Below are positions 609 through 47,757 of a stretch of 64,000 nt of DNA, one piece after another. Under the pieces are notes generated by a model. It was not told where the DNA came from. It made no database searches and saw nothing but the letters and a program-made list of their open reading frames with translations. Every line of letters begins with the position of its first letter. Positions within the stretch are counted from its first letter, which is position 1. Source of the DNA: a virus; IMG/VR virus record IMGVR_UViG_3300045988_147821, positions 32,001 through 96,000 of that record. One strand, 5' to 3'. Position numbers and translations under genes: made by a program.

Positions 609-2129
609 TTATGCCAAACCTTCTTTACCGATATTAACGATACGAACAACTTTGGCAGGTTGGTATAATACAGGAGTACCGTAGTTCAAGATAGCAAATC
701 TACGAGATGGAGATGTGATAGCGAAATCCATCTTCATAGTATCTGCGAACTGCAAGTATTCGTTGATTTCAGAGTTGTTGTAGCAAATCAATGCTGACTT
801 GGTTCCGGCAATGATACGGTTACGGTCACGAACCTTGGTTGCGGCAGCACCGTCATATCCGGCAGCCAATTGAGATACTGAAACCTCAAAAATCGGGAAG
901 TATTTGGTGTTGGCATCAATAACAGCGTTCTTTTCGGTACGATATACAACGAAACAAGTAGCTGCGTATGCACCGCCTACTCCGGCTGCGAACTGCAAAT
1001 CAACTGATTGCTGTGCTGTAACTGCGATAGCTGCATCAGACATAGCAACAGGAGCAGATTCACCGTAACGGTTCTTAGCTGTAACGATGTAACGGTAGTT
1101 ACCTGCATGGTTGGTGAAACGAGTTTTCGTATCACTGTTCTGTGCAGCAGCGTCAGCAGTCTTAGTAGGAGCAACAGGGGCTTTTGCAGAAGTAGCACGA
1201 TCGCCCAAACGTTTCGGCTTACGTTCATCGAAGAAACGGTCATTTTTAATATTCACACGACCGAACTGTGTAACAATGTCGTTTACGCTCTGACCCATTG
1301 TAGCACCCACAACAGAGTTAGGATAACCAACAAGAACACGTTTTGATTCGTGGAACTGTTTAACATAGTCGTTGAACACGATCGGATTAGAGATGATACG
1401 ATCAAATTCACCGTTATATACGTTAACGATTACATTGGCTGCATCCTCAACCAATTTGTCATTCAATACCGAACCGTCAGCATCAACAACAGCAGGGTCA
1501 TTGAAATAAGCATCCAAAACGTTTTCAGAAGTCATACCTTCAATTGTACCACCTTCTTTTGTTACAACACCGATCATGTGTTGGCGGAAGATGCCGTCAA
1601 ACTGTTCGGGAACACAAGAAGAATCGGCATCAACCAATCTGCGGTCAAGCATTGTTTGCAACAACAAAGTCTTGTTTTCAACTTCACGAGCGTACATCTT
1701 TACGCCACCAGCCAATTTAACAAGCATTGCAGGATGAGTAACCTGACCTGTAACACCCATGAACTTAGCAACGATTGAACGTCTGATGTATTGAGAATCG
1801 GTTTCTTCGGGGGTTTCACCTTCTGCATTGAAGATACCTACTTCCTCACCATATTTTGACAATTGGTTGTATTCGTGAACGGTGTTGTCGATTTTGTCTT
1901 TCGGCATTTCGTTCAGATAAACCAACTGATCCAAACGGTTAGTCAACACTTTCAGGACTGCATCCAAAGATTCAACTTTCAGACCACCACCTGTGTTAAC
2001 TTCGTTGTTGTACTGCATACCTGTTTTCAATCCGGCTTCCATAGCCTTCAAGATTTCGGCAGAGTTTTCGTTTCCTACTTGGAAACCGTCAAATGAACCA
2101 CTATAATTGTATAAATCTTCCATATTCAA
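609..2129 (-). CDS. major capsid protein (putative)
   Basis: 506-aa ORF directly after the protease and an acidic scaffold-like ORF, in classic portal-MuF-protease-scaffold-MCP order, followed by a strong terminator. Assigned by synteny and size, not by a diagnostic motif. Confidence 0.7.
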   Translation of the reverse strand: MNMEDLYNYSGSFDGFQVGNENSAEILKAMEAGLKTGMQYNNEVNTGGGLKVESLDAVLKVLTNRLDQLVYLNEMPKDKIDNTVHEYNQLSKYGEEVGIFNAEGETPEETDSQYIRRSIVAKFMGVTGQVTHPAMLVKLAGGVKMYAREVENKTLLLQTMLDRRLVDADSSCVPEQFDGIFRQHMIGVVTKEGGTIEGMTSENVLDAYFNDPAVVDADGSVLNDKLVEDAANVIVNVYNGEFDRIISNPIVFNDYVKQFHESKRVLVGYPNSVVGATMGQSVNDIVTQFGRVNIKNDRFFDERKPKRLGDRATSAKAPVAPTKTADAAAQNSDTKTRFTNHAGNYRYIVTAKNRYGESAPVAMSDAAIAVTAQQSVDLQFAAGVGGAYAATCFVVYRTEKNAVIDANTKYFPIFEVSVSQLAAGYDGAAATKVRDRNRIIAGTKSALICYNNSEINEYLQFADTMKMDFAITSPSRRFAILNYGTPVLYQPAKVVRIVNIGKEGLA

Positions 2130-2167: not shown

Positions 2168-2839
2168 TTATTTGCACAAAACAAAACCTTTTGATTTAGC
2201 GTAGTTGTACAAGTTCTTTCCTACTGTGTTTGCATAGGAATCAAGCATGTATGTTTTGTAATCATCTTCGATTGACTTCTGAATGTTTTCATCAGCCTTT
2301 TCGTAAAGATTTTGCAACAGACTCTTGCAGAACTCACGCTGTCCTGTAACACTTACTTCCAACTTACCGTTTTTTTCATTCATTTCAGTGTCAATGGATT
2401 TTTCGATAGCAGACAAACCCATATCACCCTTAAACCCCGGAGCGGTGTTTTTTGCCATTGCATCAAATCTTTCATTGATTGACTTGTTCAGTTCAGCAAA
2501 ACCTTCTTTCATGCCTGCAACGATAGAAGCAGAAAGGCTTTCTCTGAAAGATTTGAGAACATCAGCGTCAAGTCCTTTTTCAACCTTGCCTTCTGAATCC
2601 TTATCTTCCTTGTAGTCCTTTTCATCTTCCTTCACTTTCTTTTCAGCATCAACAGCAGCCTTTTCCTCCTTGTCGATCTTTTCTTCCTGCTTAGTTTCCG
2701 ATTCGTTATCCCCGGCTTTTGCAGATTTTTCGATACGGATATTTCCGGCTTCGATTTGTTCAGCGATATATTCATCACTGAAAACAGCTTGAAGTGACTT
2801 GAACACTTCGTTGTCTTTGTATTCTTCTAAGTTTATCAT
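2168..2839 (-). CDS. scaffolding protein (putative)
   Basis: 223 aa, highly acidic and lysine-rich, low complexity (KEEKAAVDAEKKVKEDEKDYKEDKD), located between protease and MCP. Confidence 0.6.
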   Translation of the reverse strand: MINLEEYKDNEVFKSLQAVFSDEYIAEQIEAGNIRIEKSAKAGDNESETKQEEKIDKEEKAAVDAEKKVKEDEKDYKEDKDSEGKVEKGLDADVLKSFRESLSASIVAGMKEGFAELNKSINERFDAMAKNTAPGFKGDMGLSAIEKSIDTEMNEKNGKLEVSVTGQREFCKSLLQNLYEKADENIQKSIEDDYKTYMLDSYANTVGKNLYNYAKSKGFVLCK

Positions 2840-2870: not shown

Positions 2871-3650
2871 TTATTCTGTTTTTCCGCTTACCATCTTCAT
2901 GTAATCCATAAGAACGGATTTATTTACATCCCCATTTTTGACCGCACAAACAAGTCTGTCAAAATCATCCTTGGAGAACTCCTTCTTATTGACAATGGAC
3001 AATTCAAGGCTCTTGTTTACAATAATAACATTTTTACCGCAATCCACTTTCAATAAAGGCAGATTATCCTCATAAACAAAGTCACCATTAGGAATATAAA
3101 AATCCTGTTTCTGCATACCCTTAACAATATCGGCATACGTATTACCGTTTACTGGATTCATTGTAAGGGCCACATTGGTAATCAGTGTTTTTGTTATGTG
3201 TTTAGGATTATCCTTATCTCTTTCCAACGCCTTTCCTTCAATGGAGAATCCTGGGGTACGCTTTGGTTCAGACTGTTCCATTTCAAGTGCTGTATCGTAG
3301 AATGCTCTTGCTTCGGAAGATTTGCTCCACAACTTACATTTCAAATAGAACTTATTTTTCTCAACCTTTGCTTCCAACGGAACTCCTATAAAGAAGCGAC
3401 TTTTGTTTATTGGGGAACGTGTAGGAAGATGATCTAAATTAATCAATCCACGCTTCTTGAACACGTCAAGAACAAAGCCGTTCGGCTCCATAGAATCACC
3501 TTCAAAGTCCTCTGAATTGTCAGAAGCAAGACCTTCAAATATCATATTCTGATATCTGCGATCATCACCTCTTTCATAATCCAACGGATTGAATTTTGAT
3601 TTATGAATGATGGCTTCCAGTGTGAAATTTAATCTGTTATCGTCAAACAC
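2871..3650 (-). CDS. prohead maturation protease
   Basis: EGLASDNSEDFEGDSMEPNGF..GLINLDH and GFSIEGKA match the phage prohead serine protease pattern (EG.AS..D..G ... H ... G.S.GG). Position in the head module agrees. Confidence 0.7.
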   Translation of the reverse strand: MFDDNRLNFTLEAIIHKSKFNPLDYERGDDRRYQNMIFEGLASDNSEDFEGDSMEPNGFVLDVFKKRGLINLDHLPTRSPINKSRFFIGVPLEAKVEKNKFYLKCKLWSKSSEARAFYDTALEMEQSEPKRTPGFSIEGKALERDKDNPKHITKTLITNVALTMNPVNGNTYADIVKGMQKQDFYIPNGDFVYEDNLPLLKVDCGKNVIIVNKSLELSIVNKKEFSKDDFDRLVCAVKNGDVNKSVLMDYMKMVSGKTE

Positions 3651-3769: not shown

Positions 3770-5809
3770 TTAATGTAATTGTAATCGGTATATAGACTGT
3801 TTTGTCTTGACAAGAAAATCATCAATCAATGACAGTTCACCAAAGTAATCTTCATCCCCGTCCAACGATTTACGGAATTTGGTTGTTCTCTCAAACAACA
3901 GTTTGATGAACTTCAACGGATCAGATTCTTCGATTTCTTCCGATTCAACCGTATTGGCATCAAATCGCCCGAACAATGCCTGTCCTGATTCGGCAAGAGT
4001 ATCCTTAAAGTCATTCATCAAGTCACCCACTTCATCAAGATACACATGTTTAGAATTATCTTCTTCTGTCCAATGAAGATTGTCCTTACGGGTAATCATA
4101 CCCTGTAAGAAATTGATATAGGAGAGAAAATCGGCTTTCTTTGTCTTTTCAGATTTCTCTATATCATCATTTTCCTTTTTGACATCGTTTTCAACGGACT
4201 TATTTATTTCTTCGTTCCTTCTCAAACCATTTACATAAATACAGTTATGGTTAAACTTCCATTCCTGTTCACCGTTATCAGGAGTGATTACCTTGACTGA
4301 AAAATCAGCGCATCTCCCGGACACTTTCTGTATCATGCCCAACATGTCAAAGAACTTTTCCGCACTTTCGGAATTTACCCCCGAATAACTAAAAGAACCT
4401 TGTCCATATACATCTTCTATCGGCTTTTCATCAACCTCCACATATTTCTCCGAATACTGTCTTTTCTTGAATGAAATAGCCTTCTCCACCTTATCGTCAC
4501 CGTTTTCAACACCTGAACCCTGTGGACCAACAACTTCTTCTTTAAGACTTTCAGGAGCGATTTCCCCAGCATCGGCAGTAGTCATGGCTTTTTCTTCAAC
4601 ACCTGTTTCGTTTTCCGACTTCTCAACCTTTCCTTCTTTCTTCTCTCCCCATGATTCAGGTAACTTGTCTGTAAGACCAAGTTCCTTTGCACGTTTTCTT
4701 ATCCATGCCTTTACTTCTGATTTGGGCATGTCGGATGCTCCTACAAGACGTATGGCATCATGTAAATCCTGTTCGTTTCTGATAGGATATTTACCGTTCG
4801 GCATCGCTTCACCTTTCTTTGCAAGATCCTTTCTTTCTGAATGAGAAAAATAAGTTTTGTTCTGCGCTTTCAAAACTTCATCAGGATGCTCCTTACAATA
4901 GGTGTCAAATACTGATTTGCTGATATATCCTTCCGAATATGCTTTCAGTATCCTTGTTATACCGCATGAATCGTCAAGACCCATAATTCTTTTCAGATTC
5001 TCTTTCATATCGAAAATAAAGTTGTAATTATCAATTTTATCCAGTTTTATCCATGCAGAACCAACTTCCTCTTCGCTGTCAAGTAGGATGCTTGCACCTT
5101 CCTTTTCATCAAGAGTGACCATATAATAGTGAATGTCCGCATCGTTGTTTTTATAGGTGGCTACCTCACGTAAACGGTCTGCGGCCACCTCTATTCCCGT
5201 TTCCTCCCACAATTCTCTACGTGCAGCTACTTTAAATTCTTCTCCTTCATCTACATGACCTCCGGGAATACACCAATCATCCGTTGCCTCTCCCATATCG
5301 GTACAACGGTTAAGGATAAGTATTTTTATCCCATCGGGAGTGAACTTCTGAACAATAACATCCGCATATTTCACGGCACCCTTGCTTTTTAGAAAATCAA
5401 AGTACACAGATTTTGTTATCTGTTTCTTTTGATATAGGTATCTCATTTTTTCCGCCTTGTCAATCTCCTTGATTGCAATAGAAAGATCCTTGTCGGATGA
5501 AATGGATTTCATCACGCTCTCATTCTTTATAACAAGGCCACGTAAATCGGATACTTTTATCCCCTGTTCCTTGATAAAATCATCATATCGGTTCATTGCA
5601 TCCTTCATATCTTCATCCATTTCACCTTTCTCCATGAACATGGACTTCAATGCGGACATTTCAGAGAAAGACTTGGCAAGTTCATTTCCCTTGTCTTTGT
5701 ATTCATAAGACTTACGGACAGCACTTCTATATTTTCTAAGTTTATCCGAAGCAGTTTCTAACCCAAGTAAACTTCTTATATTCATAATCAAATTTTTAAA
5801 TAATCTCAT
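3770..5809 (-). CDS. 679-aa head-module protein with an internal Nudix hydrolase domain
   Basis: Perfect Nudix box GX5EX7REUXEEXGU: GHVDEGEEFKVAARRELWEETGI (residues 184-206, about 4985..5377 for the domain). The flanking regions are of unknown function. Confidence 0.85.
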   Translation of the reverse strand: MRLFKNLIMNIRSLLGLETASDKLRKYRSAVRKSYEYKDKGNELAKSFSEMSALKSMFMEKGEMDEDMKDAMNRYDDFIKEQGIKVSDLRGLVIKNESVMKSISSDKDLSIAIKEIDKAEKMRYLYQKKQITKSVYFDFLKSKGAVKYADVIVQKFTPDGIKILILNRCTDMGEATDDWCIPGGHVDEGEEFKVAARRELWEETGIEVAADRLREVATYKNNDADIHYYMVTLDEKEGASILLDSEEEVGSAWIKLDKIDNYNFIFDMKENLKRIMGLDDSCGITRILKAYSEGYISKSVFDTYCKEHPDEVLKAQNKTYFSHSERKDLAKKGEAMPNGKYPIRNEQDLHDAIRLVGASDMPKSEVKAWIRKRAKELGLTDKLPESWGEKKEGKVEKSENETGVEEKAMTTADAGEIAPESLKEEVVGPQGSGVENGDDKVEKAISFKKRQYSEKYVEVDEKPIEDVYGQGSFSYSGVNSESAEKFFDMLGMIQKVSGRCADFSVKVITPDNGEQEWKFNHNCIYVNGLRRNEEINKSVENDVKKENDDIEKSEKTKKADFLSYINFLQGMITRKDNLHWTEEDNSKHVYLDEVGDLMNDFKDTLAESGQALFGRFDANTVESEEIEESDPLKFIKLLFERTTKFRKSLDGDEDYFGELSLIDDFLVKTKQSIYRLQLH

Positions 5810-6209
5810 CGCATACTAAAATACCGTCAGCAAAATAACTATGCGCCCGATTTACTTCAAGAGAATAGCATATCTTATTGATAGTTTCCATCTTTTCAAT
5901 ATCCACTATCTTCTTTATCCCTTTCAAAGTTAATAAACTATCTCCCTTTTTCAAATCCTTGACATATCTCCATCCATCTTCCGACATAACAAGCTGCACT
6001 CCTTGAAAACGATAACCTACAATATCATCATCACATCTTATATTATAGGAAACATCATATTTGGTTGCCAATTCCTGAACAAGTTTCTTGGCTATATGAT
6101 AGCTTTCCTTATAGGACATGACAGACATACCAACAACAATATCTTTGATGTATTTGTCACCCTCTATTGTCCTTATCGCTGTAAAACCCGAATTGAATCC
6201 CATAATCAT
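5796..6209 (-). CDS. free-standing Hint (intein-like) domain protein, catalytic residues degenerate
   Basis: Block-A-like GFTAIRTIEGDKYIKDIVVGMSVMS, a post-block-B-like DGWRYVKDLKKGDSLL, and block F/G-like YSLEVNRAHSYFADGILVCDE. There is no Cys1 and no terminal HN. ATGA overlap with the upstream ORF. Confidence 0.6.
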   Translation of the reverse strand: MIMGFNSGFTAIRTIEGDKYIKDIVVGMSVMSYKESYHIAKKLVQELATKYDVSYNIRCDDDIVGYRFQGVQLVMSEDGWRYVKDLKKGDSLLTLKGIKKIVDIEKMETINKICYSLEVNRAHSYFADGILVCDEII

Positions 6210-6829
6210 TCCTCCCCTTTATATTCTGACTTGTTTCCTGTCAACACCCGTGCACTCTCCATATCCAATGCACGCAAGAAAGTATCTTCCATGACATAGG
6301 AGAATCCCGGCTCACATTCCACTTCATATATAGTAGATGTTACGGGAATACGGGTAACATTCATATTGTGCCGTCTGTAATAAATGATATTTGAACCGTA
6401 TGACATGGAATTTTCCGGCCCGATATCAGGCAAGCAATAATTCCCTTCAAGAACTTCACTCACTTTCTTTGTTATGAACGGCATCCATACCACATCATTA
6501 GGATTGTCGGGTATTTCCTTGCACATGATAAGAGTATCAGGGTGCATCAAGGGGAAACACGTTTTCTTTCCGACATAGTTCTTAAATTCCAATCGAAGCA
6601 AATCCCCCTCATATTCGATAGGGGTAACGCTTACGATGGTTCCATCGCAAAACTTCATGGAATTTCGGTCAAACAGCAAAGTAACAGGAGAGCCTTGCAC
6701 TGTTCTAAATGTCTTGTCACCTGTCATAATTCGTTTGTTTTCCTGTAACTCATTAAGAACTTTTGGGCTTTTAATCCCAAGAACATTCTCGTAGACACAC
6801 TTTATTCTTTGTCCTGAATCCAAAAACAT
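6206..6829 (-). CDS. free-standing Hint-like domain protein (divergent)
   Basis: Starts MFLDSGQRI (Met where an intein Cys1 would be). Contains PLMHPDTLIM (block-B-like His) and IYEVECEPGFSYVMEDTFL (block-F-like). Confidence 0.45.
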   Translation of the reverse strand: MFLDSGQRIKCVYENVLGIKSPKVLNELQENKRIMTGDKTFRTVQGSPVTLLFDRNSMKFCDGTIVSVTPIEYEGDLLRLEFKNYVGKKTCFPLMHPDTLIMCKEIPDNPNDVVWMPFITKKVSEVLEGNYCLPDIGPENSMSYGSNIIYYRRHNMNVTRIPVTSTIYEVECEPGFSYVMEDTFLRALDMESARVLTGNKSEYKGEE

Positions 6830-6847: not shown

Positions 6848-8890
6848 TTAAACATCAAATTCCTTAGTTCCAACCTTGATATGAATTTTGGATTTTCGTC
6901 TTACCTTTCTTTTCTCTTCTTTCATAGGAGAAGTGACGAACATCCTTAATTTTTCATCCCATTCATCAAACATCGGGTTGTAGTATTGGAGCGAGCAACG
7001 GCAATTACCTGATACACATACCTTATTGTTTCTACGAATAATTAACGTATGATTTCTTTCCAATTCAACATCATATATATATCCCTCATATTCTATGACA
7101 TTTTCCTGTATTCTTCTTTTAAGATTGTACTTATTTTTTAATACATTTATCCATAAAATATCATTCTTAGATATATATACCTTTCCCCTTTTTACATCAT
7201 TATAATACCGTTTACCTGTATTTTTAAAAGAAGGTCTTTCTCCGGTTTTTAAAATCAATTCACCCAAATCATCAGCCAATCTTTTACTAGTTGTTATATA
7301 ATGAACTTGTGGCTTAAATTGATACCCTTTCCACACTTTTCCTTTATGAATAGTACCATCTCCAAGTCTAAATGCTTCTAAAAATAAAGAAATGTTTTCC
7401 GAAGTTGTTTGCTTTATAAAATCAGGAACATATCTTACATCTTGCTTTCCTAAATTATAGAAAAACAAAAGTAATTCAGGTTTACTGCAAGCAGAAATAG
7501 TGATTCTATCTTTATCATTTCTAGCCTTTTCCCCAAACAAAGAAGAAGAACATAACCACATCTTTTCCTTAACCTCTTGCTTTAATTGAATCAATTGGAT
7601 TAATTTTCTATCTTCAACCAATGTTCCATCTGAAAGCCAATAGCCCAAAAATTCACAAAACAACTTAAAATCATACTTTATTCCATCAAACTCAATATAC
7701 TCTAAATCAGTTCCTTTCCATTTAGGTATAGTAACTAAAAAGGTAAAATCTTTAGGAAGATCGCTTTCCTTTACTAACAATATATTTCTACCCCTTCCTT
7801 TATTATACTTATTTGTACCAACATGTACATGATTAGGGGTTGTACAAAGGTTATAATCTCTACTAACTCTTTCTATCATAATACCTTTATATTGTTGGTT
7901 TATATACTTAATTGCTTGCACATATTCACCTTCACCAGAACTAGGATTAACTGACAAAAATAATTCATCACCCTTTAAGTCTTTAAAAAACATAAACCCT
8001 TTGTCAGTAAGAACCTCTGTTTTATCATCATAACAGAAAGGGTGCGTAGCCTGGACAGTAGGAAGCCATTCTCTCTGCCTTCTCCCTACGTTGGTCCCAT
8101 TGGCAAGCAATTCTTTCAGTTTGAAAATTTTGGGCCTTGAACCAAGTCCATTTGTAGTAAAGAAACGTATGCAATATGAGCATGCACCATTGAACACTGT
8201 CTTATATACAAGGGCATCCTCACCATGCAAGTCAAGAATACTAAGTGCAGTTCCTTCCTCAAAGATATTCTGCATCTCTGTTTCCATGATACGAAGCCAG
8301 TCCTTTTCCCATATCTGCGTTCTATGACCTATGTCACTTACAATCTGTTTTATAGTCTGTTTTTTATTGAATACAGCACCATTCATAACAGCTTCCTGAA
8401 TCACCCTGCGTTCAGCTTCTGCCTGTGCATTGTCATATTGGGATGCAACCTCTCCAAGAATAGCTTCTGCCACATCCTTTTTCATCTTATCTCCAAGACC
8501 TTTGAGATAGGTATATGTTTTTGTAGCCGCCACACCAAGCCGCATTTGATCTGTAAGCGTCAATTGGGAAACCTGTTCGGATGATACGAATTTATAAAAG
8601 TCAGCATATCCTAATGATGCAGTCTGTCTTGGTTCAAGAACTCCGGCAAGTCTACCGAAAATCATGGCCTGCTGATATGGTGGGATTCGCTTCATCTCCT
8701 TTTCAAAATCAAAGTTGAACTCTTTAAGGAGTTTCTTGTCTGATTCCGAAATAAACTGTTTCCCCAACACTTTTACGATAAGACGAACAAGACGATAGTC
8801 TATTATTCTGAATATCCTCTTGATTACTCCGTCCTGTTCATAAAAAGGTGGATAAAACCTCAAATCCTTATCTATCCTGTTTTCTGCCAT
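6848..8890 (-). CDS. MuF / SPP1 gp7-like head morphogenesis protein interrupted by an intein
   Basis: The exteins rejoin to CSYC...LPTVQATHPF|CRCSLQYY, which is the C..C ... HPxCRC signature of Mu F-like minor head proteins. The gene lies next to the portal. Confidence 0.75.
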   Translation of the reverse strand: MAENRIDKDLRFYPPFYEQDGVIKRIFRIIDYRLVRLIVKVLGKQFISESDKKLLKEFNFDFEKEMKRIPPYQQAMIFGRLAGVLEPRQTASLGYADFYKFVSSEQVSQLTLTDQMRLGVAATKTYTYLKGLGDKMKKDVAEAILGEVASQYDNAQAEAERRVIQEAVMNGAVFNKKQTIKQIVSDIGHRTQIWEKDWLRIMETEMQNIFEEGTALSILDLHGEDALVYKTVFNGACSYCIRFFTTNGLGSRPKIFKLKELLANGTNVGRRQREWLPTVQATHPFCYDDKTEVLTDKGFMFFKDLKGDELFLSVNPSSGEGEYVQAIKYINQQYKGIMIERVSRDYNLCTTPNHVHVGTNKYNKGRGRNILLVKESDLPKDFTFLVTIPKWKGTDLEYIEFDGIKYDFKLFCEFLGYWLSDGTLVEDRKLIQLIQLKQEVKEKMWLCSSSLFGEKARNDKDRITISACSKPELLLFFYNLGKQDVRYVPDFIKQTTSENISLFLEAFRLGDGTIHKGKVWKGYQFKPQVHYITTSKRLADDLGELILKTGERPSFKNTGKRYYNDVKRGKVYISKNDILWINVLKNKYNLKRRIQENVIEYEGYIYDVELERNHTLIIRRNNKVCVSGNCRCSLQYYNPMFDEWDEKLRMFVTSPMKEEKRKVRRKSKIHIKVGTKEFDV
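7004..8035 (-). mobile_element. class-1 intein with LAGLIDADG homing endonuclease (344 aa, residues 286-629)
   Basis: N-terminal CYDDKTEVLTDKGF, block B TPNH, two LAGLIDADG motifs (LGYWLSDGT, LEAFRLGDGT), C-terminal VCVSGN followed by +1 Cys. Confidence 0.85.
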
Positions 8891-9080
8891 AATCTATCAG
8901 TTCTTCCGTTATCTGCTTTATCATGTTAGAAATTTCATCCTTATAGATGTCGTTGGCCTCACTCTCATATACATCCTGAACCTTTGGGAAAGGAGGTTGC
9001 TCCTTTGTCCGGGATTTATAGAATATCTTCCCATCAGGAGCAATCTTTTTAATGAATTGAAGTCCTTTTTGCATTATCAT
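8868..9080 (-). CDS. hypothetical small protein
   Basis: 70-aa ORF translationally coupled (overlaps) between the portal and MuF genes. Confidence 0.5.
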   Translation of the reverse strand: MIMQKGLQFIKKIAPDGKIFYKSRTKEQPPFPKVQDVYESEANDIYKDEISNMIKQITEELIDYGRKQDR

Positions 9081-10843
9081 TCACCTCCAAACATCTTGTT
9101 GATAACTTCCGTGGCCCTGTCCATGATGGGATTGTCACCATACATGGATTTGTATTTTGCAAATGGATCTTCTTCCTCTGCTGCCACATTGGATGATGGT
9201 TGCTCTTCCTCATTCTCCACACCTTCCACTTCACCTCCGTTCATCTGACCTCCCATGGCAGCAGCGTTATCCTTGTTGATTTTATAATTCATCCATACGG
9301 AATTGAGGATTGTGTCCTTTTCAGGATTGAACGGTCTGCCTGAATATGCTTCAAAAGCATCCTCCAATGAGATCATTCCTGCTTCAAGTTTCTTCTTGTC
9401 GATTTCCACTTTCAATGCTTCATCTTCAAGATCAACGCCTGTAAAAGCAAACTCGAATGATTCATCAAGTTCCGATACAAGATATCTTGTTATGATTTCT
9501 TGTAGGAAGGATAACATGGGTTTAAGACCTTTCTCACGTGAATGCTTTAATCTCTGTCGTTGGCCGTCCTGTCCGAACATCTGTGCGGATTCCTTGAACT
9601 GGAATCCTAGTTCTGAGGGGTCTATACGATAGACAGAACATATCAGCACAATAAGGAATTGGTTCCATAAATTGTACTCCATATCCTTGTTGTTTTTGGT
9701 CAAATCAATCCATTCAACCTGTGATTGTGCCAAAACAGGGATTCTTCCTGCGTTTTGAGGTCCTGCCATCATTTGATACCACATTTGCCTAAACTCGTTC
9801 AAAGTGGTTTGGGAAACATTTTCACCCTTGATATTCAACAGACCTTTGGGGAATACGCCATTCTTGAATGAATTACCATTGGATTGTAAGGACCATAAGA
9901 ACCATGTCACAATCTCATTGAGTGTTTCAAGTTCCGAAACCCCGTATCCGTTACGGTAGACATCGGTTGACTTGTTACGCACCCCGAAACCGAGTTCCCA
10001 CGGGTAATAGACGATTGATTCGCCTGTGACGGGATTTTTGAGAATCTGATTATCCCACACCATACAGTAGCGGGGCAAATATCCCTTAAACCGATATTTC
10101 TCGAACTCCTGCCTGTTCCGTGGGTCAACCGCACCAAGGAAACGTACAAGTGACGCGTCCACCGCCTTGAATCTGTCAAGTTCCCACATCCTGTTTCTTG
10201 TGGTTTCAAACGCAAGCTGGTCAAGTGTCAGCGAATCAAACGAAATCTTTCTTATGAAGTCGGGAAGGGTATCATAGTTATCCCATTTGTCGGTGTTGCC
10301 ACCTCGTTCCAGGAACTCCACGATTTTTTCTACCTTCTTCTTGTCTTTCGATGATAAAGACAAATCTCCCGGATCAAACAAACCTCTTTTCTTTCTGATG
10401 GTATAACCTTCCTTCTGCTCGTCATCGGAGAAGTGCAGGAAGTTCTGTATCTGCTCTATACGTGTGTTTACGATGGCCCTTACAAGATAAATTCCACCCA
10501 TTCTACGTAACGTACTGAATGGAAGAATACCTCTTTGAGCAAGATAATCACGTCCACTATCGTTCCATACCTGCGGATCAAAGAAAACGGATTGAAGTTT
10601 TCCATTATCCGAAGTCTTTGAACCAAGATACAGATTTGCTTTCATCACATCTTCCACATCCCTAGACATCATAGAAGATTGTAATTTTGATTGCAAAAGC
10701 ATGGGAACAGTCTTGCTTAATCTGTCCAGTTCATTGAAATCAAGGGAAGCCAAAGACTTCAACAAGTCAGGCTTCCCATTTTTATATGTATTTTTCCGTT
10801 TTCTACTCATTTCTGCAAAAATATTATGCCGAAGCTCCAGCAA
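9077..10843 (-). CDS. portal protein (putative)
   Basis: 588 aa, immediately upstream of the MuF-like gene, with an acidic C-terminus. An alternative start at 10810 (MSRKRKN) avoids overlap with the upstream ORF. Assigned by synteny and size. Confidence 0.6.
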   Translation of the reverse strand: MLELRHNIFAEMSRKRKNTYKNGKPDLLKSLASLDFNELDRLSKTVPMLLQSKLQSSMMSRDVEDVMKANLYLGSKTSDNGKLQSVFFDPQVWNDSGRDYLAQRGILPFSTLRRMGGIYLVRAIVNTRIEQIQNFLHFSDDEQKEGYTIRKKRGLFDPGDLSLSSKDKKKVEKIVEFLERGGNTDKWDNYDTLPDFIRKISFDSLTLDQLAFETTRNRMWELDRFKAVDASLVRFLGAVDPRNRQEFEKYRFKGYLPRYCMVWDNQILKNPVTGESIVYYPWELGFGVRNKSTDVYRNGYGVSELETLNEIVTWFLWSLQSNGNSFKNGVFPKGLLNIKGENVSQTTLNEFRQMWYQMMAGPQNAGRIPVLAQSQVEWIDLTKNNKDMEYNLWNQFLIVLICSVYRIDPSELGFQFKESAQMFGQDGQRQRLKHSREKGLKPMLSFLQEIITRYLVSELDESFEFAFTGVDLEDEALKVEIDKKKLEAGMISLEDAFEAYSGRPFNPEKDTILNSVWMNYKINKDNAAAMGGQMNGGEVEGVENEEEQPSSNVAAEEEDPFAKYKSMYGDNPIMDRATEVINKMFGGE

Positions 10844-31525: not shown

Positions 31526-32979
31526 TTTGTTATCAAATTTTCAAGTACATAATTAATTAAATCCTGCTCGGTGAATCCGTCAGTTTCCTTGGTGGGAACT
31601 GAATCGAATCCTATGGAGTTGTAGAAAGCTGAACTAATCCATCCGCTATTATGGTCAGTATTGCTAAAGAATATAGGAGTTTTAGTTTTATCACCTGTCA
31701 CATCATTGTTTACTATGGTGATTATTTGCTTTTTGTTTAACAAAGCGGAAACTATTGTAGATTCATTCAGTGTTCCATCAATATAGGTCTTGCCGTTTGA
31801 GTTCCTACTATTATAAGCAATACTACCTTTGTCATTGAATACGGCAAACAGCCAAGGTTCAGTAGTATTCAGTCTTTGGTCATAGATAAACTTTCCATCA
31901 ACAAACGGATTAATAGTAGTAAACAACACCTTAACGCCCTGTTGCAAGTTCTGTATTTGCCCATAATCATCTACCCCATCAGTTACTAGGGCGTTGGGAT
32001 ATCTAGGTATAAACTCTATTGTTACATCCATATCTCCTGCACTTCCTGTAACTCCTATGGCGTTATACAATGAAGTGGTTCCTTCGGGATAGGTTAATGT
32101 CACCTCATGTTCCCCGTTGTCAAAAGTATAAAATCCGCCATTTCTGTTTACCAAACTAACTTGTCTGCCATCAGAAAGACCTGTAACCTTAAACTTATGC
32201 GTTGGGTTAGAGTTTGCCGGAACTATGTTTACCATGTTATCCGTAGTGGATAGTTTTTTAGTAATATGAATAATTCTGTTATCTGTAACAGTAACATTTG
32301 CTCTATCGGGTAGAATATTGGTGCTAGAAATGTCATACCCTCCCACACCGCTCATTGCCGCGAACAGGAAATTGTTCAATTTAAGCGGTCTGTTGTTTCC
32401 GCTATGGTCTTGCAGGTATGGATTGGCTTTTAGTATCTCGTTTGTGGGAACGGATTGTCCTGACGGTAGCTGGGTGATGGTGATGTTACAAGCACCGACA
32501 ATATTGCCGTTTCTGAATGACAGATTACCCTTTACGGTTTTCAATGGCGGAATATCATAGGTTCCGTCTGATGTAATATTAACTAATTTTACATTAGCAC
32601 TATATCCCCAGTATAATTCCTGCCCCTCCAAAAGACCCTCAACAGTTACTTTCATTCCAGGAAAATTCTTTGTTTGGTCAGGAATGTAGCATTTTACTGT
32701 ATCGTTCAGTGTAACAAATCTAGTTATGACAAATGAGGTGCTTGTTATAATTACATCAGCATTTACAGAGGGATGCGATCTCCAGTCATTAAAATTTACC
32801 GCATAAACATCTACAGGCTTTGACATATCATACCAAAACACCATGTGTTCTTTCACCCATTTCGCATAATCAGGCGGAAGCGGTCCACCGCTTCCTGCCC
32901 TTCGTCTGAAAATAGTTCCGATTCCAATCATAGAATACGCTCCCGGAATGATATAAAACGATTTCTTTCTTGCTGCCAT
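31522..32979 (-). CDS. putative receptor-binding / fibre-like protein with C-terminal LamG (concanavalin-like) domain
   Basis: TDGVDDYGQIQNL..VLFTTI......WLFAVFNDKGS...GKTYIDGTLN resembles the LamG_3 jelly-roll pattern (DG.dDy..i ... W.h.a...d......lYvDG). Confidence 0.4.
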   Translation of the reverse strand: MAARKKSFYIIPGAYSMIGIGTIFRRRAGSGGPLPPDYAKWVKEHMVFWYDMSKPVDVYAVNFNDWRSHPSVNADVIITSTSFVITRFVTLNDTVKCYIPDQTKNFPGMKVTVEGLLEGQELYWGYSANVKLVNITSDGTYDIPPLKTVKGNLSFRNGNIVGACNITITQLPSGQSVPTNEILKANPYLQDHSGNNRPLKLNNFLFAAMSGVGGYDISSTNILPDRANVTVTDNRIIHITKKLSTTDNMVNIVPANSNPTHKFKVTGLSDGRQVSLVNRNGGFYTFDNGEHEVTLTYPEGTTSLYNAIGVTGSAGDMDVTIEFIPRYPNALVTDGVDDYGQIQNLQQGVKVLFTTINPFVDGKFIYDQRLNTTEPWLFAVFNDKGSIAYNSRNSNGKTYIDGTLNESTIVSALLNKKQIITIVNNDVTGDKTKTPIFFSNTDHNSGWISSAFYNSIGFDSVPTKETDGFTEQDLINYVLENLITK

Positions 32980-35612: not shown

Positions 35613-36074
35613 TTATACAAATATTGAGATACAAATTCCATCCTCATTTCCTACAAGAATAGAATGATCATCAAGTTCCTTGGCTGCAAAGTCATACATT
35701 TGCATATCTGAATGATGGGTTATTGATTTCACTCTCAAATGATTGCTTTCCCCATCGCCTGGAATACCCCATGTTTCAATACATTCCCCCTCACAAACAA
35801 AGGCAGGGCAGTAGGTGTCCATGTGTTCCAGCCGTAACGGCTGATCTTCCGTACAGATAAAATGGAATCCATTGTCAAATTCCATATCAATGATTTCAGA
35901 ACCCGCATAAGTAGGGAAAGCCGAACCCTCTATTGTGACAAGTTCACCGTTTCTGTCAAGTGCATATACCTGTACATAATCCTTTGTGTCAAGTTCCTCT
36001 ACGGGAACCATTTTCATATTACCGTCTATTAATGTAGCGATAAGTGTACCTTTGGCAAAACATTGTTTATTCAT
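35613..36074 (-). CDS. free-standing Hint (mini-intein-like) domain protein
   Basis: MNKQ then CFAKGTLIATLIDGNMKMVPVEEL (block A with Cys1), TEDQ in place of TxxH, MYDFAAKELDDHSILVGNEDG (block F-like). No terminal HN and essentially no exteins. Confidence 0.6.
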   Translation of the reverse strand: MNKQCFAKGTLIATLIDGNMKMVPVEELDTKDYVQVYALDRNGELVTIEGSAFPTYAGSEIIDMEFDNGFHFICTEDQPLRLEHMDTYCPAFVCEGECIETWGIPGDGESNHLRVKSITHHSDMQMYDFAAKELDDHSILVGNEDGICISIFV

Positions 36075-43187: not shown

Positions 43188-45226
43188 TCAAATTTTACAT
43201 TAGCAATTCCATTATCCTTCGTAACCACGATACTCCGTATATTGTCACGAACACGACTTATCTGTGTGGTAATCAGACAGGGCTGTTTCAGGAACTCCAA
43301 CGAACGGATAATATTCTCTATTCCCATCGGATCGGAAGCATCCAGCACTTCATCCACATATAGAAAGTGAAGTCCTCCCCACGGATTGGTAGTATTAATC
43401 ATGGATTGTACCGCAAGAATCATGGCTATTTCCGCTCTTGCACGCTCTCCACCCGAATAATACCAATATGTTTCCATCTCATCACGGAAAATATAGGGTG
43501 TCAGTTCCTCTTTCATCTTCCCTTTGGAATCAAGTTTGAACGCTTCTATTATGATTCTCAAATCAGAATCCATGGCATCCAATGTATCGTTCGCTTCCGC
43601 CTGAATATTCTTTATCTGCTCCACAGCAAGATACATCTTGAACTCCTTGAAACGCGCATACCATCTTTCGGTATTTTCACGTTCAACATTCAATGCAAAT
43701 ATATCATTTTTAATTTTTTCAATCAGTCTTTCCTCTTGGTTTATATTCTCAATTATGGGTTTTTGAAGGTCAGCCAGATTATCAAGCGGCTTCTCTCTCA
43801 AATCATCCAATTCCTGTACGTGACGTTTGATTGAATCATTGTACACATCAATATCCTTGTTGTGGTTTTCAATCTGCATGATCATTCTTTCTATCACACT
43901 GTCGGCTGAATCATGTTCACGTTTCCAATAGGAAAGATTCTGTTCTTTCTGTGAGATTTTATCCTCTATTGTCTTGAATCTTGTCTTTGCATTGTTCAAA
44001 TCAGTTCTTATCTCTGAAATTGCAGTAGAATATTCGGAAAGAATGGAATCGTATTCGGAAATTGACGAAATGATCTTGTCCATCTTTTCCGAATATTCGT
44101 TTATGGATTTCAATACCTCTTTCTTTCTCTTTTCCGTTTCCTTCAATGTGGTTCCTTCTTCCAATAGGAACCTATGGCCGCATTCAGGACAGATTATTGC
44201 ACCTTCAAGAGTTGTATTAAGACGTGTAAGCATTGACTTGTATTTGGCAATTTGGGATTCTATCTTGTACTTATCATCAGTCTTTCCCGACTTCTCCGAT
44301 TTAACTCCGTCAACTTCCTTTTGAATCTCATCGGCTATCTCCTTCTGTGTTTCAACAAATGCGGACGCTTCTTCAAGTTTATTTCTTTCATTAATAAGTT
44401 CTGATTCAGCGTTTTTTATGTTTTCGTTTAAGGATAGCTTCAACGTTTTCTTATCTTCTATCGCCTGCTTTAGTTCCTCTATTTTTATTTGGGATAATTC
44501 TATCTTCTTTTTATCCGACAGAATCCTGTTTTCTATTAGGAATAATTCCTGTTCACGCTGTTCTTTTAGATGATCTACGGACATATTGTCAAGTTGTTCG
44601 CTGTAAACTTCCATCTTACTTTCGGATGCAACAATCTTGTTTTCGAGAGAACGGATTTCCATTTCCAATTTCCTTACCTTGCCGTCAATAATCTCTTTTG
44701 TCTTGTCTATGTCATTGAAATTGATAAAACGGCTTATCAACGCCAATTTATCCGTATTGGATGAAGTAAAGAATGACTTATAATTTTCCTTGGATATGAT
44801 GTAATAGGTCTTTGCATCTTCGGCCGTTATACCCAACCATGCGGATATTATCTTGTTCCCCTCATTGATTGTACCATAAGGTTTCTCCACTCCATTGAAT
44901 GTAATGGATAGAGTTGCCGAACCCTTGATAGGAATGGTTCTTCTTACAATCATTTCCACATTTCTTGCAGGACATACTATTGACACCTCAACTTCCGCCT
45001 TGTCCGTTCCACGTCTTACCAGCTTCCTGTCCAGATTCTTTCTTAGGTTGTCACCGTAAATCGCATAGAACAGGGCATGAAGTATGGCTGATTTTCCGGC
45101 ACCATTGGATTGCTGCCCTTCATCCGTATTGTTTATCCCTATGATTGCCATAGGGATATTTTTAAAGTCAATGGTAGCTTCTTCTATTGAACAGAAGTTC
45201 TTTATATACAAACTAGTTATTCTCAT
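43184..45226 (-). CDS. sbcC: SbcC/Rad50-like ATPase
   Basis: Walker A NGAGKSAIL, long coiled coil with CPECGH zinc hook, signature YYSGGERA, Walker B FLYVDEVLD. Confidence 0.85.
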   Translation of the reverse strand: MRITSLYIKNFCSIEEATIDFKNIPMAIIGINNTDEGQQSNGAGKSAILHALFYAIYGDNLRKNLDRKLVRRGTDKAEVEVSIVCPARNVEMIVRRTIPIKGSATLSITFNGVEKPYGTINEGNKIISAWLGITAEDAKTYYIISKENYKSFFTSSNTDKLALISRFINFNDIDKTKEIIDGKVRKLEMEIRSLENKIVASESKMEVYSEQLDNMSVDHLKEQREQELFLIENRILSDKKKIELSQIKIEELKQAIEDKKTLKLSLNENIKNAESELINERNKLEEASAFVETQKEIADEIQKEVDGVKSEKSGKTDDKYKIESQIAKYKSMLTRLNTTLEGAIICPECGHRFLLEEGTTLKETEKRKKEVLKSINEYSEKMDKIISSISEYDSILSEYSTAISEIRTDLNNAKTRFKTIEDKISQKEQNLSYWKREHDSADSVIERMIMQIENHNKDIDVYNDSIKRHVQELDDLREKPLDNLADLQKPIIENINQEERLIEKIKNDIFALNVERENTERWYARFKEFKMYLAVEQIKNIQAEANDTLDAMDSDLRIIIEAFKLDSKGKMKEELTPYIFRDEMETYWYYSGGERARAEIAMILAVQSMINTTNPWGGLHFLYVDEVLDASDPMGIENIIRSLEFLKQPCLITTQISRVRDNIRSIVVTKDNGIANVKFE

Positions 45227-46709
45227 TTTCTTCGGTATTTTTATCGGGTTCCTTATTCAGTTCTTCTTTCGCTTTTTTGATTACTGCTTCCCCTATTTCG
45301 ATTCTCAATGATTCATCTTCCTCCAGGAATTTACGGGTATTCTTCTCTCCCTGTCCTATACGCTGATCACCGTAATAGAAGAAAGCACCTTTCTTTTTCA
45401 GAATGCCATAATCAAGACCCAGGTCTATTATCTCCTGCACCTTGTCAATGCCTTTTCCGAATCGGATAACAAACTCACATTTCTTGAACGGTGGTGCAAT
45501 CTTGTTTTTCTTCACCTTTACCCTTGTAAGGTTTCCCGTTATCTCATCTCCATCCTTTTCCGAACCGATACGACTGAACTCCAACCGTTGTGACGCATAG
45601 AATTTCAATGCCTGTCCTCCGGGTGTCTTGGTGGAGTTTCCTCCGAATCCGAATCCTCCTATGGTGTCACGTGTCTGATTGATACACAATAGGATGTTGT
45701 TGTTACGCTTGATTATGTTTTTCAGAATATTCAACTGTGAGGACATAAGCCTTGCGACAAGGGCCACTTTCTGATCTCCCGCTTCACCCTGTGCCTGTGC
45801 AGTAGGTGTAAGTCCTGCAACCGAATCAAGAACGACAAGACCTATTTCCTGTTCCTCACACATGGTACGGATGATTTCAAGTGCTTCTTCCGCACTGTCA
45901 GGCTGTGACAGGATGAATTTTTCGGCAGACATATCCACACCCAATTTCTCTGCATAGAACGGGTCAAGTGCCTGTTCCACATCCACATATCCCACTGCCT
46001 TTCCTGTTTTCTGAACTTCTGCAACCAAATGAAGTGCAGCCGTTGTTTTTCCACAATTGTGTACGACAAAATCATCAGCTATGAAATTATGCCATTTCCC
46101 ACCGCATTTCACGTCATACACTTTCCCATCTCCTACGGGTTCTATGGATTCAACACGGTCTACCTCTATATATTTCAGACGAAGTTTTGTGTCATGCTTG
46201 TAAACGAATAGAGGGTTTCCCTTGGTAAATTCCTTCAATTCCTTATACTGTCCGTCACCCACATAGAATTTATGATCATCCGTGGCCGTTATCACATGGC
46301 CTTTCTTTGTCACAAGTTCATAGACAGGGCGTTTACCCACATATATCACATCTTCCACAGGGTGCCACTTTATTTCACCGAAAACTTCCTCTATCCCCAT
46401 GATGTAAATGTCAAAATTACGTCTTTGGTCACAGAAGCATCCGTGGAGCACCTTCAATGACTTGTTATAATATCCCATTACAGCATTGTCACCATGATGC
46501 ACGTATTTCACTTTTACACGTGTACGGCCGTCAAGACATGATTCCCCACCGAACACCTCCACGATTCTTCCTTTGGGATAACCGCCACCAAGAACTGCAT
46601 CAAGGGAATATGAACCACTGTGTATGCAATCTACCGCTACATGGTTGCCGGAAATAGCTTCCTTTCCAAATCTCTTTTCTATTGTTGCAATCAAATCCTT
46701 TATAGCCAT
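45213..46709 (-). CDS. recA: RecA recombinase interrupted by a mini-intein in the P-loop
   Basis: The exteins read RIVEVFGGES|CGKTTAALHLVAEVQKTGKAVGYVDVEQALDPFYAEKLGVD...SQPDSAEEALEI...VVLDSVAGL. Start taken at MAIKDLI (46709), just after the sbcD stop. Confidence 0.9.
   Translation of the reverse strand: MAIKDLIATIEKRFGKEAISGNHVAVDCIHSGSYSLDAVLGGGYPKGRIVEVFGGESCLDGRTRVKVKYVHHGDNAVMGYYNKSLKVLHGCFCDQRRNFDIYIMGIEEVFGEIKWHPVEDVIYVGKRPVYELVTKKGHVITATDDHKFYVGDGQYKELKEFTKGNPLFVYKHDTKLRLKYIEVDRVESIEPVGDGKVYDVKCGGKWHNFIADDFVVHNCGKTTAALHLVAEVQKTGKAVGYVDVEQALDPFYAEKLGVDMSAEKFILSQPDSAEEALEIIRTMCEEQEIGLVVLDSVAGLTPTAQAQGEAGDQKVALVARLMSSQLNILKNIIKRNNNILLCINQTRDTIGGFGFGGNSTKTPGGQALKFYASQRLEFSRIGSEKDGDEITGNLTRVKVKKNKIAPPFKKCEFVIRFGKGIDKVQEIIDLGLDYGILKKKGAFFYYGDQRIGQGEKNTRKFLEEDESLRIEIGEAVIKKAKEELNKEPDKNTEENENN
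46056..46538 (-). mobile_element. mini-intein (161 aa, no endonuclease domain) in the RecA Walker A motif
   Basis: CLDGRTRVKV (block A), TDDH (block B), YDVKCGGKWHNFIADDFVVHN followed by +1 Cys. Confidence 0.85.
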
Positions 46710-46713
46710 AATA

Positions 46714-47757
46714 TCAATCTCCCAATGCTTTTTGTAATATATCACTTGCTTCGTCTGCATTATATTTCTTTTCCTTGCAGAATGAAGCAAATCTGTCCAT
46801 AATATCCGTTTTTGTCAAAACCTTTATTTCGTTAACCTTATCTTCCGCATCTATAACTTCCTCAACTTCCTTTATCTTGGGCTTTACATCAATCCCCATT
46901 GCGGAATACTTTGTCCTATCAAATGCGGAAACTTTGTCCTGTGTTCCTGTGACCTCTATTCTGATACGATCATTGTCGTTTCTTTTGGAAGCATGAAATA
47001 GGGTTATCTGTTCCTCCACTTCATCTGGTGACATGGTATCCAAGTCCACGGTTATTTTCTTGAATGATGAACGCTCGGATTTTATAAGTTCTGTTGTACC
47101 ATCACTATACAGGATATAAAACCCTTTTTTATCATCTTCACCAAAGTTGTTCTGACACAATGATCCAAGATGGATTATTGATTGTGTGACATATTGCATA
47201 TTGTGATAGTGGCCACTTAGGACAAATTTATACTTTTTCAATACAGTAGGGGTCAACTTGCTGTCCACCTTGCTTCCATCATTGTTGCAGCTTCCGTCAA
47301 AAGCCATGTGGGTAAACAAGATATCAGCTTTCTTATCCTTTATATTCTCAAATTCATCCAGCCATTCCTTATCAGAAAGAAACGGCATGAAAGCCATTTT
47401 CAGTCCTCCTATTTCCTTGATTACCCCATCACGTAACAGAACAAATGACGGATGGTATTTGTACGGGTCAAGAAACGAATTTTTTGACGTGTAATCGGTT
47501 TTATCATGGTTTCCAGGAATGACAAACATCTTCTGCTTGTTGTTATGATAGGAATCGAGTATGTTTCCAAACGTATTCAACACACATTCCTTTTGACTTA
47601 TACGGGAATCAAATATATCCCCCAACCATATATGCGTATCTACTTCCATATCCTTTGCAAGTTCAAGTTCGTCTTGCAGAAGGTTGTTTATAAGTTCACA
47701 GTTATCTGGCTTCAAGTGCCAATCGGTACTTATGATTGCTATCGGTTTTACTTCCAT
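46714..47757 (-). CDS. sbcD: SbcD/Mre11-like nuclease
   Basis: Calcineurin-like phosphoesterase motifs STDWH, GDIFD, GNHD, THMAF and SGHYH. Confidence 0.85.
   Translation of the reverse strand: MEVKPIAIISTDWHLKPDNCELINNLLQDELELAKDMEVDTHIWLGDIFDSRISQKECVLNTFGNILDSYHNNKQKMFVIPGNHDKTDYTSKNSFLDPYKYHPSFVLLRDGVIKEIGGLKMAFMPFLSDKEWLDEFENIKDKKADILFTHMAFDGSCNNDGSKVDSKLTPTVLKKYKFVLSGHYHNMQYVTQSIIHLGSLCQNNFGEDDKKGFYILYSDGTTELIKSERSSFKKITVDLDTMSPDEVEEQITLFHASKRNDNDRIRIEVTGTQDKVSAFDRTKYSAMGIDVKPKIKEVEEVIDAEDKVNEIKVLTKTDIMDRFASFCKEKKYNADEASDILQKALGD

Follow-up and report, generated by a model that had tools for sequence, protein, structure and literature searches.

What does a Hint domain do in a phage head operon if it stands alone and carries none of the residues by which such domains process themselves? 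Hint domains are single-turnover self-processing modules of inteins, Hedgehog proteins, BIL domains and pre-toxin Hint domains. The question is raised by two adjacent open reading frames (ORFs) in the IMG/VR virus record IMGVR_UViG_3300045988_147821, of which we analyzed a stretch of 64,000 nucleotides (nt) covering positions 32,001 to 96,000 (hereafter the window, to whose first letter all coordinates refer unless another record is named). ORF1 (6206..6829, minus strand, 207 amino acids) and ORF2 (5796..6209, minus strand, 137 amino acids when read from the ATG at 6209) fill the region 5796..6829 exactly, according to both the ORF list and the raw sequence. The original prediction had described the pair as tandem free-standing Hint-domain ORFs with inactivated splicing residues, either domesticated or left over from inteins. 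Its coordinates and the four peptides that it quoted were found to be correct: the ORF1 translation starts with MFLDSGQRIKCV and reads MFLDSGQRI...IYEVECEPGFSYVMEDTFL, and the ORF2 translation reads ...GFTAIRTIEGDKYIKDIVVG...YSLEVNRAHSYFADGILVCDEII. The explanation we favor, with a probability of roughly 55%, is that ORF2 is a catalytically dead, exapted Hint-fold protein of the head operon with a role in assembly, and that ORF1 is a separate, lineage-specific orphan gene.

The Hint identity of ORF2 was assessed by profile searches and by structure prediction. ORF2 matched the Pfam family PT-HINT (PF07591) with 33.3 bits at a gathering cut-off of 27.7, gave sub-threshold matches to the Pfam families Hint_2 and Intein_splicing, and came just below the cut-off for the NCBIfam model intein_Cterm (TIGR01443; 14.5 bits, cut-off 15.6). 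Searching the PDB sequences with a profile of the ORF2 family, we found the gp41-1 intein through the N-terminal blocks (E = 2.4e-5) and the 6y75/6tmm chains, which we take to be Hint/BIL-type, through the C-terminal blocks (5e-5); the DnaX and RecA mini-inteins matched as well. The 'Tako8' entries that ranked above gp41-1 in this search were rejected as spurious, being summed repeats of a designed propeller. The AlphaFold model of ORF2, built from a 23-sequence alignment, reached a predicted local distance difference test (pLDDT) value of 44 and displays a strand pattern with a two-fold repeat. With this model as Foldseek query, the top 22 PDB matches were all inteins or BIL domains, the BIL structure 2lwy among them, at template modelling (TM) scores of about 0.27, and the top matches in BFVD were Hint-bearing viral proteins. 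From the Pfam match, the PDB profile matches and the Foldseek results we conclude that ORF2 is a genuine Hint domain.

We read the catalytic positions of the ORF2 family from the family alignments, from an alignment with five inteins of this phage population and from the gp41-1 register. The Cys1 position is occupied by an invariant Phe, or by the preceding Gly/Ile if the register is shifted by one residue, and the N-terminus carries a conserved FNSG motif. Block B contains no Thr-x-x-His; acidic residues are found there (IRCDDD / ITEDET), and no His is conserved. At the C-terminal end, Cys (window) or Pro (most relatives) stands in place of the penultimate His and an invariant Asp in place of the terminal Asn, the window ORF2 ending in ..ILVCD-EII. 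The tail that follows this Asp comprises 0-11 amino acids of variable sequence and length (none in the P0029 lineage, where the Asp is the last residue), and no more than 2-7 residues precede the start of the Hint domain, which leaves ORF2 without exteins. Apart from the fold signature, none of the features that define an intein was found: there is no in-frame insertion, no nucleophile at position 1, no TxxH, no His-Asn, no Cys/Ser/Thr at position +1 and no mobility. Because the canonical splicing residues are absent and the tail is variable, no splicing is expected and nothing conserved is there to be cleaved off; judged by its residues, we infer that ORF2 would be unable to splice or self-cleave by canonical intein chemistry. 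The description of ORF2 as a free-standing, non-splicing Hint protein with inactivated splicing residues (Phe/Gly1, no TxxH, Cys/Pro-Asp) therefore stands, and it was also right that neither ORF ends in His-Asn and that no host-protein sequence surrounds either of them, as seen from the sequence and from 82 loci without fusion.

The family to which ORF2 belongs consists, in our profile search, of stand-alone proteins of 147-160 amino acids that are 25-32% identical to the window protein. Among the 82 annotated loci an ortholog was observed at the same place in every case: the Hint gene is missing from none of them (0/82) and fused to a neighbor in none (0/82). The order portal, minor head protein, Hint and Nudix was found in 52 loci; another 16, which constitute the window's sublineage, have ORF1 inserted ahead of the Hint gene, and in most of the remaining ones IS605-type TnpB genes are inserted beside it. 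A metagenome scan yielded 39 further loci, all on human-gut assemblies of ~100-111 kb, and 0 of 185,579 prokaryotic species genomes contained a prophage or bacterial copy. These data point to a clade of ~100-110 kb human-gut phages with Bacteroidota hosts, the hosts being suggested because a neighboring gene encodes a BACON domain and because distant similarity to Bacteroides and Chryseobacterium phages was observed.

For an estimate of selection we computed the ratio of non-synonymous to synonymous substitution rates (dN/dS) by comparing the window with L001, the sublineage member that diverges most, at a dS of ~0.8 or more. The values were 0.031 for ORF1, 0.041 for the major capsid protein (MCP), 0.049 for both ORF2 and the portal protein and 0.054 for the Nudix protein. 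Across two sublineages the Hint protein retains 33% identity and is the fastest-evolving protein of the head module, compared with 38% for a 223-amino-acid putative scaffold and 68% for the MCP; such fast divergence fits a small accessory or assembly protein. Since its position is fixed across the clade and purifying selection is strong, the data support ORF2 as a domesticated, fixed core gene of the head-morphogenesis operon. Domestication, one of the two options that had been put forward for the pair, is thereby borne out for ORF2 (fixed position across the clade, dN/dS 0.049), and we regard its Hint identity and domestication taken together as highly probable.

The arrangement of the gene pair is compact. 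The stop codon of ORF1 and the start codon of ORF2 share an ATGA overlap (6206..6209, minus strand) that is preceded by GGGGAGGAA, and both elements, as read from the sequence, are consistent with translational coupling of the two genes. A second ATG at 6203 would yield a protein of 135 amino acids starting with MGFNSGFTAIRTIEGDKYIKDIVVG; because all relatives are called from this codon, it is more likely to be the start of ORF2 than the one at 6209 (137 amino acids). An overlap of 1 or 4 nt between the Hint start codon and the stop codon upstream of it was found in 58 loci; in relatives without ORF1 the stop concerned is that of the minor-head-protein gene. Promoters or terminators that would separate the genes were considered and rejected, as their counts between the genes were no different from those in shuffled sequence. 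The GC content is 0.41 in ORF1, like that of the genome, and somewhat lower in ORF2 (0.345), compared with 0.28-0.30 in the resident intein of the minor head protein; judged by this comparison, neither ORF has been mobile recently. A fusion of Hint and Nudix proteins by frameshift or readthrough was likewise rejected: the frame offset between the two genes is 0, 1 or 2 depending on the lineage, and the overlaps are short. One entry, P0028 (169 amino acids, from an ENA contig of 105,725 bp), joins a frameshifted C-terminal part of Hint to the N-terminus of Nudix (MGLNLKALLGLQ...), which is probably an assembly or frameshift error and not a natural fusion.

Of the two tandem Hint ORFs that had been predicted, ORF2 is confirmed by PT-HINT, the PDB profile and Foldseek, while the motifs seen by eye in ORF1 found neither statistical nor structural confirmation. 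Homologs of ORF1 were observed in two clusters only (96% and 87% identity, word-indexed search), all within the same sublineage, and a full HMMER scan of 1.84 billion cluster representatives returned its own cluster only. No match was found in NCBIfam, in the PDB sequences or in Pfam, including six Hint-type models at E<=10 and searches with the protein split in halves; PHROGs gave a single negligible match (E=0.039), and tblastn against 50,697 phage records one chance match. Pairwise profile comparison with hhalign yielded P=0.36 against the ORF2 family and P=0.11 against a mixed Hint alignment of five inteins and seven ORF2-family members, and with the single ORF1 sequence as query a score of 17.3 (P=0.055; 10 of 300 shuffles scored as well). 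In its best local alignment, residues 120-182 match the C-terminal Hint half in register (…EGNY… / …IYEVECEPGFSYVMED against YDVEl..H.F.AD). A home-made Hint hidden Markov model (HMM), built from the same kinds of sequence (five inteins and seven ORF2-family members), gave ORF1 5.5 bits, a value reached by 9 of 2000 shuffles. Ranked among real proteins, ORF1 was second of the 77 window ORFs not used in the HMM and second of 32 in the hhalign control, and the P-values from shuffling are optimistic because these controls place it only second. We consider the resemblance of the ORF1 sequence to Hint marginal (P about 0.005-0.1).

Comparison of the AlphaFold models with the Hint fold divided the pair in the same way: against the inteins and BIL domains that made up the top 22 PDB matches of ORF2, the ORF1 model, built from three sequences, had a pLDDT of 34, and its Foldseek matches were noise without any intein. 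The N-terminal 30 residues of ORF1, which would form block A, are its least conserved part between the window and L001. The protein starts at its Met, which takes the place of the nucleophile at position 1, and ends 22 amino acids past the putative block G, with ..TFLRA.. in place of His-Asn, and it is never fused to a neighbor (82 loci). Searches by hhalign, phmmer and BLASTP for a paralogous relation to ORF2, to the resident inteins or to a third Hint-like ORF of the window were all negative. ORF1 is a real gene under purifying selection (dN/dS 0.031) that was acquired only in the window's sublineage, in between the minor-head-protein gene and the Hint gene; this junction ahead of the Hint gene, which holds ORF1 in the window, holds TnpB in L001 and L016.

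We compared the ORF2 family with known Hint systems. PT-HINT (PF07591), the best-scoring family for ORF2, is also a Hint domain without homing endonuclease, and it sits between trafficking or packaging modules and effector modules, an order that recurs here as minor head protein, Hint and Nudix protein. However, PT-HINT is a domain within one large polypeptide and is proposed to free a toxin by autoproteolysis (PMC3482391), whereas the ORF2 family forms a separate protein of 135-160 amino acids with no catalytic residues and with nothing attached to release. The architecture of a polymorphic toxin, with Hint embedded in one polypeptide between an N-terminal trafficking region and a C-terminal toxin, is also absent: ORF2 is stand-alone, its neighbors are distinct genes at every locus, and recoding that would fuse them is not conserved, immunity genes not having been searched for. 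Mini-inteins (gp41-1, Mtu RecA and Spl DnaX) and the resident inteins have blocks A, F and G in common with ORF2, which is of mini-intein size, but ORF2 is not situated in a host protein, lacks Cys/Ser1, TxxH, His-Asn and the +1 nucleophile, and is fixed at one locus, unlike the polymorphic true inteins of this population. BIL domains resemble ORF2 in being non-mobile Hint domains without endonuclease, and 2lwy is one of them; unlike ORF2, the known BIL domains are embedded in larger proteins and retain cleavage or splicing residues.

Other free-standing 'Hint module' ORFs of phages are g075 of Lactobacillus phage P1, UniProt A0A8S5P792 (Herelleviridae sp., 144 amino acids, in BFVD) and PHROG 34551, all of them Hint-only, ~143-150 amino acids long and without exteins. 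The P1 protein (L085 4995-5426, 143 amino acids, MDIG-FAAGTKV...FTANGAVVHD*) carries Gly in position 1, and its last residue before the stop codon is Asp; it shares with ORF2 the loss of Cys1 and the change from Asn to Asp, but the kinship is weak (27% identity, E=0.03), and, unlike ORF2, it lies among small early-type genes and not in a head operon. Judged by sequence, this parallel suggests that 'disarmed' Hint-only proteins may be a recurrent class among phages. The passages of PMC5512222 and PMC3482391 that concern such systems describe effector enzymes that are joined to MuF and portal proteins or encoded next to them and are predicted to enter the capsid and be injected; they also present HINT as the processing module ahead of the effector in polymorphic toxins. 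In the MuF- and portal-linked effectors or 'polyvalent proteins' (Iyer et al. 2017; Jamet et al. 2017) the likeness, as far as the relevant parts of these papers go, is an effector beside a minor head or portal gene, here the Nudix protein, while the processing modules named in those parts are papain-like peptidases or metallopeptidases and not Hint as in our case. Our literature search on free-standing Hint proteins in phage head modules found nothing specific. A stand-alone Hint protein is thus not new, but a catalytically dead one that is fixed in a head operon across a clade appears to be undescribed.

How could such a protein serve the head operon? We suggest that ORF2 would act non-enzymatically in prohead assembly as a small adaptor or chaperone, because it has no canonical intein chemistry and would be produced together with its two neighbors. 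Made in step with them, ORF2 would link the minor head protein, located at the portal, to the Nudix protein or bring the two into position, and in this way the Nudix protein would enter the capsid. The gene order would then echo that of PT-HINT between trafficking and effector modules, but with separate genes and without cleavage, and ORF2 may have descended from a pre-toxin-type Hint. This specific mechanism is tentative. Equally speculative is a wider version, in which the whole ORF2 family would be an exapted, non-catalytic virion-assembly factor that docks Nudix/DUF5856 cargo to the minor head protein and portal, derived from a pre-toxin-type Hint that gave up its cleavage chemistry as the modules split into genes, and which ORF1, possibly a hyper-diverged Hint, would have joined as a partner in the window's sublineage. 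To our knowledge, the exaptation of a Hint domain for virion assembly in a non-catalytic capacity has not been described. If our explanation is true, the conservation of ORF2 under strong purifying selection without any canonical catalytic residue would mean that evolution can turn the Hint fold to purely structural or assembly tasks, and the locus would offer a tractable case for the loading of packaged effectors into capsids. For annotation it means that Hint matches in phage genomes are not always inteins, and pipelines should verify that exteins and catalytic residues are there. The interest is tempered in that uncharacterized free-standing 'Hint module' ORFs are already in databases, the function of ORF2 is only proposed and ORF1 as a Hint protein is unsubstantiated.

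Several points weigh against our explanation. Both AlphaFold models are poor (pLDDT 44 for ORF2 and 34 for ORF1), the PF07591 cut-off is passed only by the window's own ORF2 lineage, and the other family members reach sub-threshold matches to Vint, Hint_2 or Intein_splicing only. At the place where Hint domains form their active site, ORF2 has the invariant Asp and the conserved FNSG, which makes some non-canonical chemistry conceivable. Membership of the upstream protein in MuF is undemonstrated, as Pfam fails and the PHROG 'minor head protein' matches are weak, and the assembly or adaptor role of ORF2 is one that we purely infer.

Among the alternatives, both ORFs could be Hint proteins, with ORF1 an extremely diverged second copy that carries an insertion of ~50 amino acids, arose by duplication or capture and is perhaps paired with ORF2. 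The register of residues 120-182 with the C-terminal half of Hint (a GD-like turn, then the sequence quoted above) and the 5.5 bits against the home-made HMM would agree with this, as would an HP motif (MHPDT) where block B would lie and two independent, non-significant hhalign runs that put residues 13-53 on the N-terminal Hint strands. Against these stand the empty searches of the six Pfam Hint-type models, NCBIfam and PDB together with the negligible PHROGs match, the second rank among 77 and among 32 real window proteins, the poor conservation of the would-be block A, the dissimilarity to ORF2, to the third Hint-like ORF and to every resident intein, and an AlphaFold (AF2) model that gave no fold and no intein among its matches; we therefore regard a second Hint protein as rather unlikely. 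The position of the invariant Asp, at the place of the terminal Asn, and of FNSG, both at the former active center, leads to another alternative, namely that ORF2 may use a non-canonical chemistry and keeps some self- or trans-processing, such as an Asp-mediated C-terminal cleavage or a PT-HINT-like release of the Nudix or minor head protein. Amitai, Dassa and Pietrokovski (2004) reportedly described inteins that splice with an Asp at the C-terminus. The best Pfam match of ORF2 is, moreover, to a family proposed to be autoproteolytic (PMC3482391). On the other side, ORF2 has neither a position-1 nucleophile nor a block-B His, and its penultimate His is Pro in most members. Hint domains act in cis and turn over once. 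The variable tail of 0-11 residues, absent from the P0029 lineage, offers nothing conserved to release, and no locus has the Hint gene fused to either neighbor, the frame offset to the Nudix gene being 0, 1 or 2. Residual processing thus appears quite improbable.

A third alternative is that the ORFs are without function, either remnants of inteins that were excised or decayed, as the original prediction had considered, or pieces of one broken structural gene. The phage population is indeed rich in mobile inteins (in the portal, where absent, mini and full forms occur, and in the minor head protein, TerL and RecA), and both ORFs are without catalytic residues. However, dN/dS values of 0.03-0.05, at saturating dS and like that of the capsid gene, do not suit a relic, every related locus has an intact ORF2 ortholog, even at identities as low as ~25%, and the ORFs are tightly packed and coupled. 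The GC content is native in ORF1 and only slightly lower in ORF2, unlike that of the AT-rich resident intein. Common ancestry with the three inteins of this phage, which had been raised as a possibility, was not supported either, as phmmer comparisons of ORF1 and ORF2 with them revealed no specific similarity. Relatives carry ORF2 alone as a complete gene of 147-160 amino acids, with no longer gene spanning both ORFs, which also disposes of the fragment idea. The relic and fragment readings are effectively refuted.

The setting of the pair in a phage head operon, as originally predicted, was confirmed by the families identified from portal to MCP in Pfam and PHROGs. All genes of the operon lie on the minus strand, in the order portal, a 70-amino-acid ORF (called in relatives), minor head protein, ORF1, ORF2, Nudix protein, prohead protease, an ORF of 223 amino acids in the usual position of the scaffold, and MCP. 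The portal gene (9077..10843) opens the head module and matches the PHROG 12 portal family (4.3e-36), and Pfam Phage_portal is found in relatives. At the other end lie the prohead protease (2871..3650; PHROG 1028 protease, 6.4e-32), the 223-amino-acid ORF (2168..2839), which has no family match, and the MCP gene (609..2129; PHROG 752 MCP, 3.5e-57).

The upstream neighbor of the pair, the minor-head-protein gene (6848..8890, minus strand), encodes 680 amino acids here and 336 without its intein, the intein-free form of 336 amino acids being found in L002-L004, L006 and L007. It follows the portal, which is the position of MuF/SPP1-gp7-type proteins, and carries a C-terminal HPF/CRC motif; this HPFCRC motif presumably resembles that of MuF. 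Its PHROG matches (115 and 758, 'minor head / head morphogenesis') are weak, and a homolog in Bacillus phage Nachito carries the annotation 'minor capsid protein'. Pfam Phage_Mu_F (PF04233) matched neither the intein-free 336-amino-acid form nor four homologs at E<=1, so that Pfam does not support an assignment of the upstream gene to MuF.

Downstream of the pair, the gene of the Nudix and DUF5856 protein (3770..5809, minus strand, 671-679 amino acids; Pfam NUDIX 1.1e-17, weak DUF5856) probably starts at 5785 (MNIRSLLGLE...), encodes a conserved N-terminus (M-x-LNLKALLGLQ) and is by synteny the invariable downstream neighbor of the Hint gene. Its Nudix domain matches a PHROG family in which Nudix is fused to a portal protein, and its C-terminal DUF5856 corresponds to the Dps-like PHROG 858. 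In Bacillus phage Nachito the 'minor capsid protein' homolog is followed by an ORF of 97 amino acids and then by a PARP/ADP-ribosyltransferase (ART) protein of 866 amino acids (L015 7163-9763). By analogy this suggests that the slot after the minor head protein may be a variable 'packaged enzyme' slot, holding Nudix here and PARP/ART in Nachito, and it makes the Nudix/DUF5856 protein a candidate for packaged cargo or effector. More remote phages also have small ORFs at this place (120 and 108 amino acids in MA9V-3, 97 in Nachito), none of which gave a Hint signal.

Three bona fide inteins exist in this phage, as had been stated, in TerL, RecA and the minor head protein. That of the minor head protein (7004..8035, minus strand, 344 amino acids, residues 286-629, C...GN/C) was delimited by comparison with intein-free relatives and matches LAGLIDADG_3. 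Its GC content of 0.28-0.30, against ~0.40 in the flanking genes (window 6900..7900), is consistent with recent acquisition from an AT-richer source. The TerL intein (within 59350..62175, minus strand) comprises 379 amino acids, is of Hom_end/LAGLIDADG type and has the form C...HN/S; the RecA mini-intein (within 45213..46790, minus strand) comprises 161 amino acids and has the form C...HN/C. We further observed that the portal gene of the window is free of inteins, as are those of L002, L003 and L006, while L004 and L005 carry at an identical site a mini form of 215 amino acids without endonuclease and L007 a full-length LAGLIDADG intein. Only the window and L005 have the intein of the minor head protein. 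Together these polymorphisms look like a snapshot of the homing cycle.

Insertions of IS605-type TnpB/OrfB genes (Cas12f-like) were found around the minor-head-protein and Hint genes at L001 6664-7860, L012 4784-5995, and L016 5769-6956 and 7475-8659, with one TnpB gene on each side of the Hint gene in L016. The sites in these sister lineages (L001, L012 and L016/L017) are the minor-head/Hint junction, the position just ahead of the minor-head-protein gene, or the Hint-Nudix junction; evidently, this part of the operon tolerates insertions.

A third free-standing Hint-like ORF is located at 35613..36074 (minus strand, 153 amino acids), among small genes outside the head operon. It reads MNKQ-CFAKGTLIATLIDGNMKMVPVEELDTKDYV... 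and ends in ..HSILVGNEDGICISIFV*, has a textbook block A in which Cys1 is kept after a leader of four amino acids, and lacks His-Asn. No Pfam match, no convincing PDB match and no phage match were obtained for it, and it is known only from relatives that are 97-100% identical. Its score against the home-made Hint profile is slightly higher than that of ORF1. Other products encoded in the window are DNA polymerase III alpha, an NAD-dependent ligase and an SNF2 helicase.

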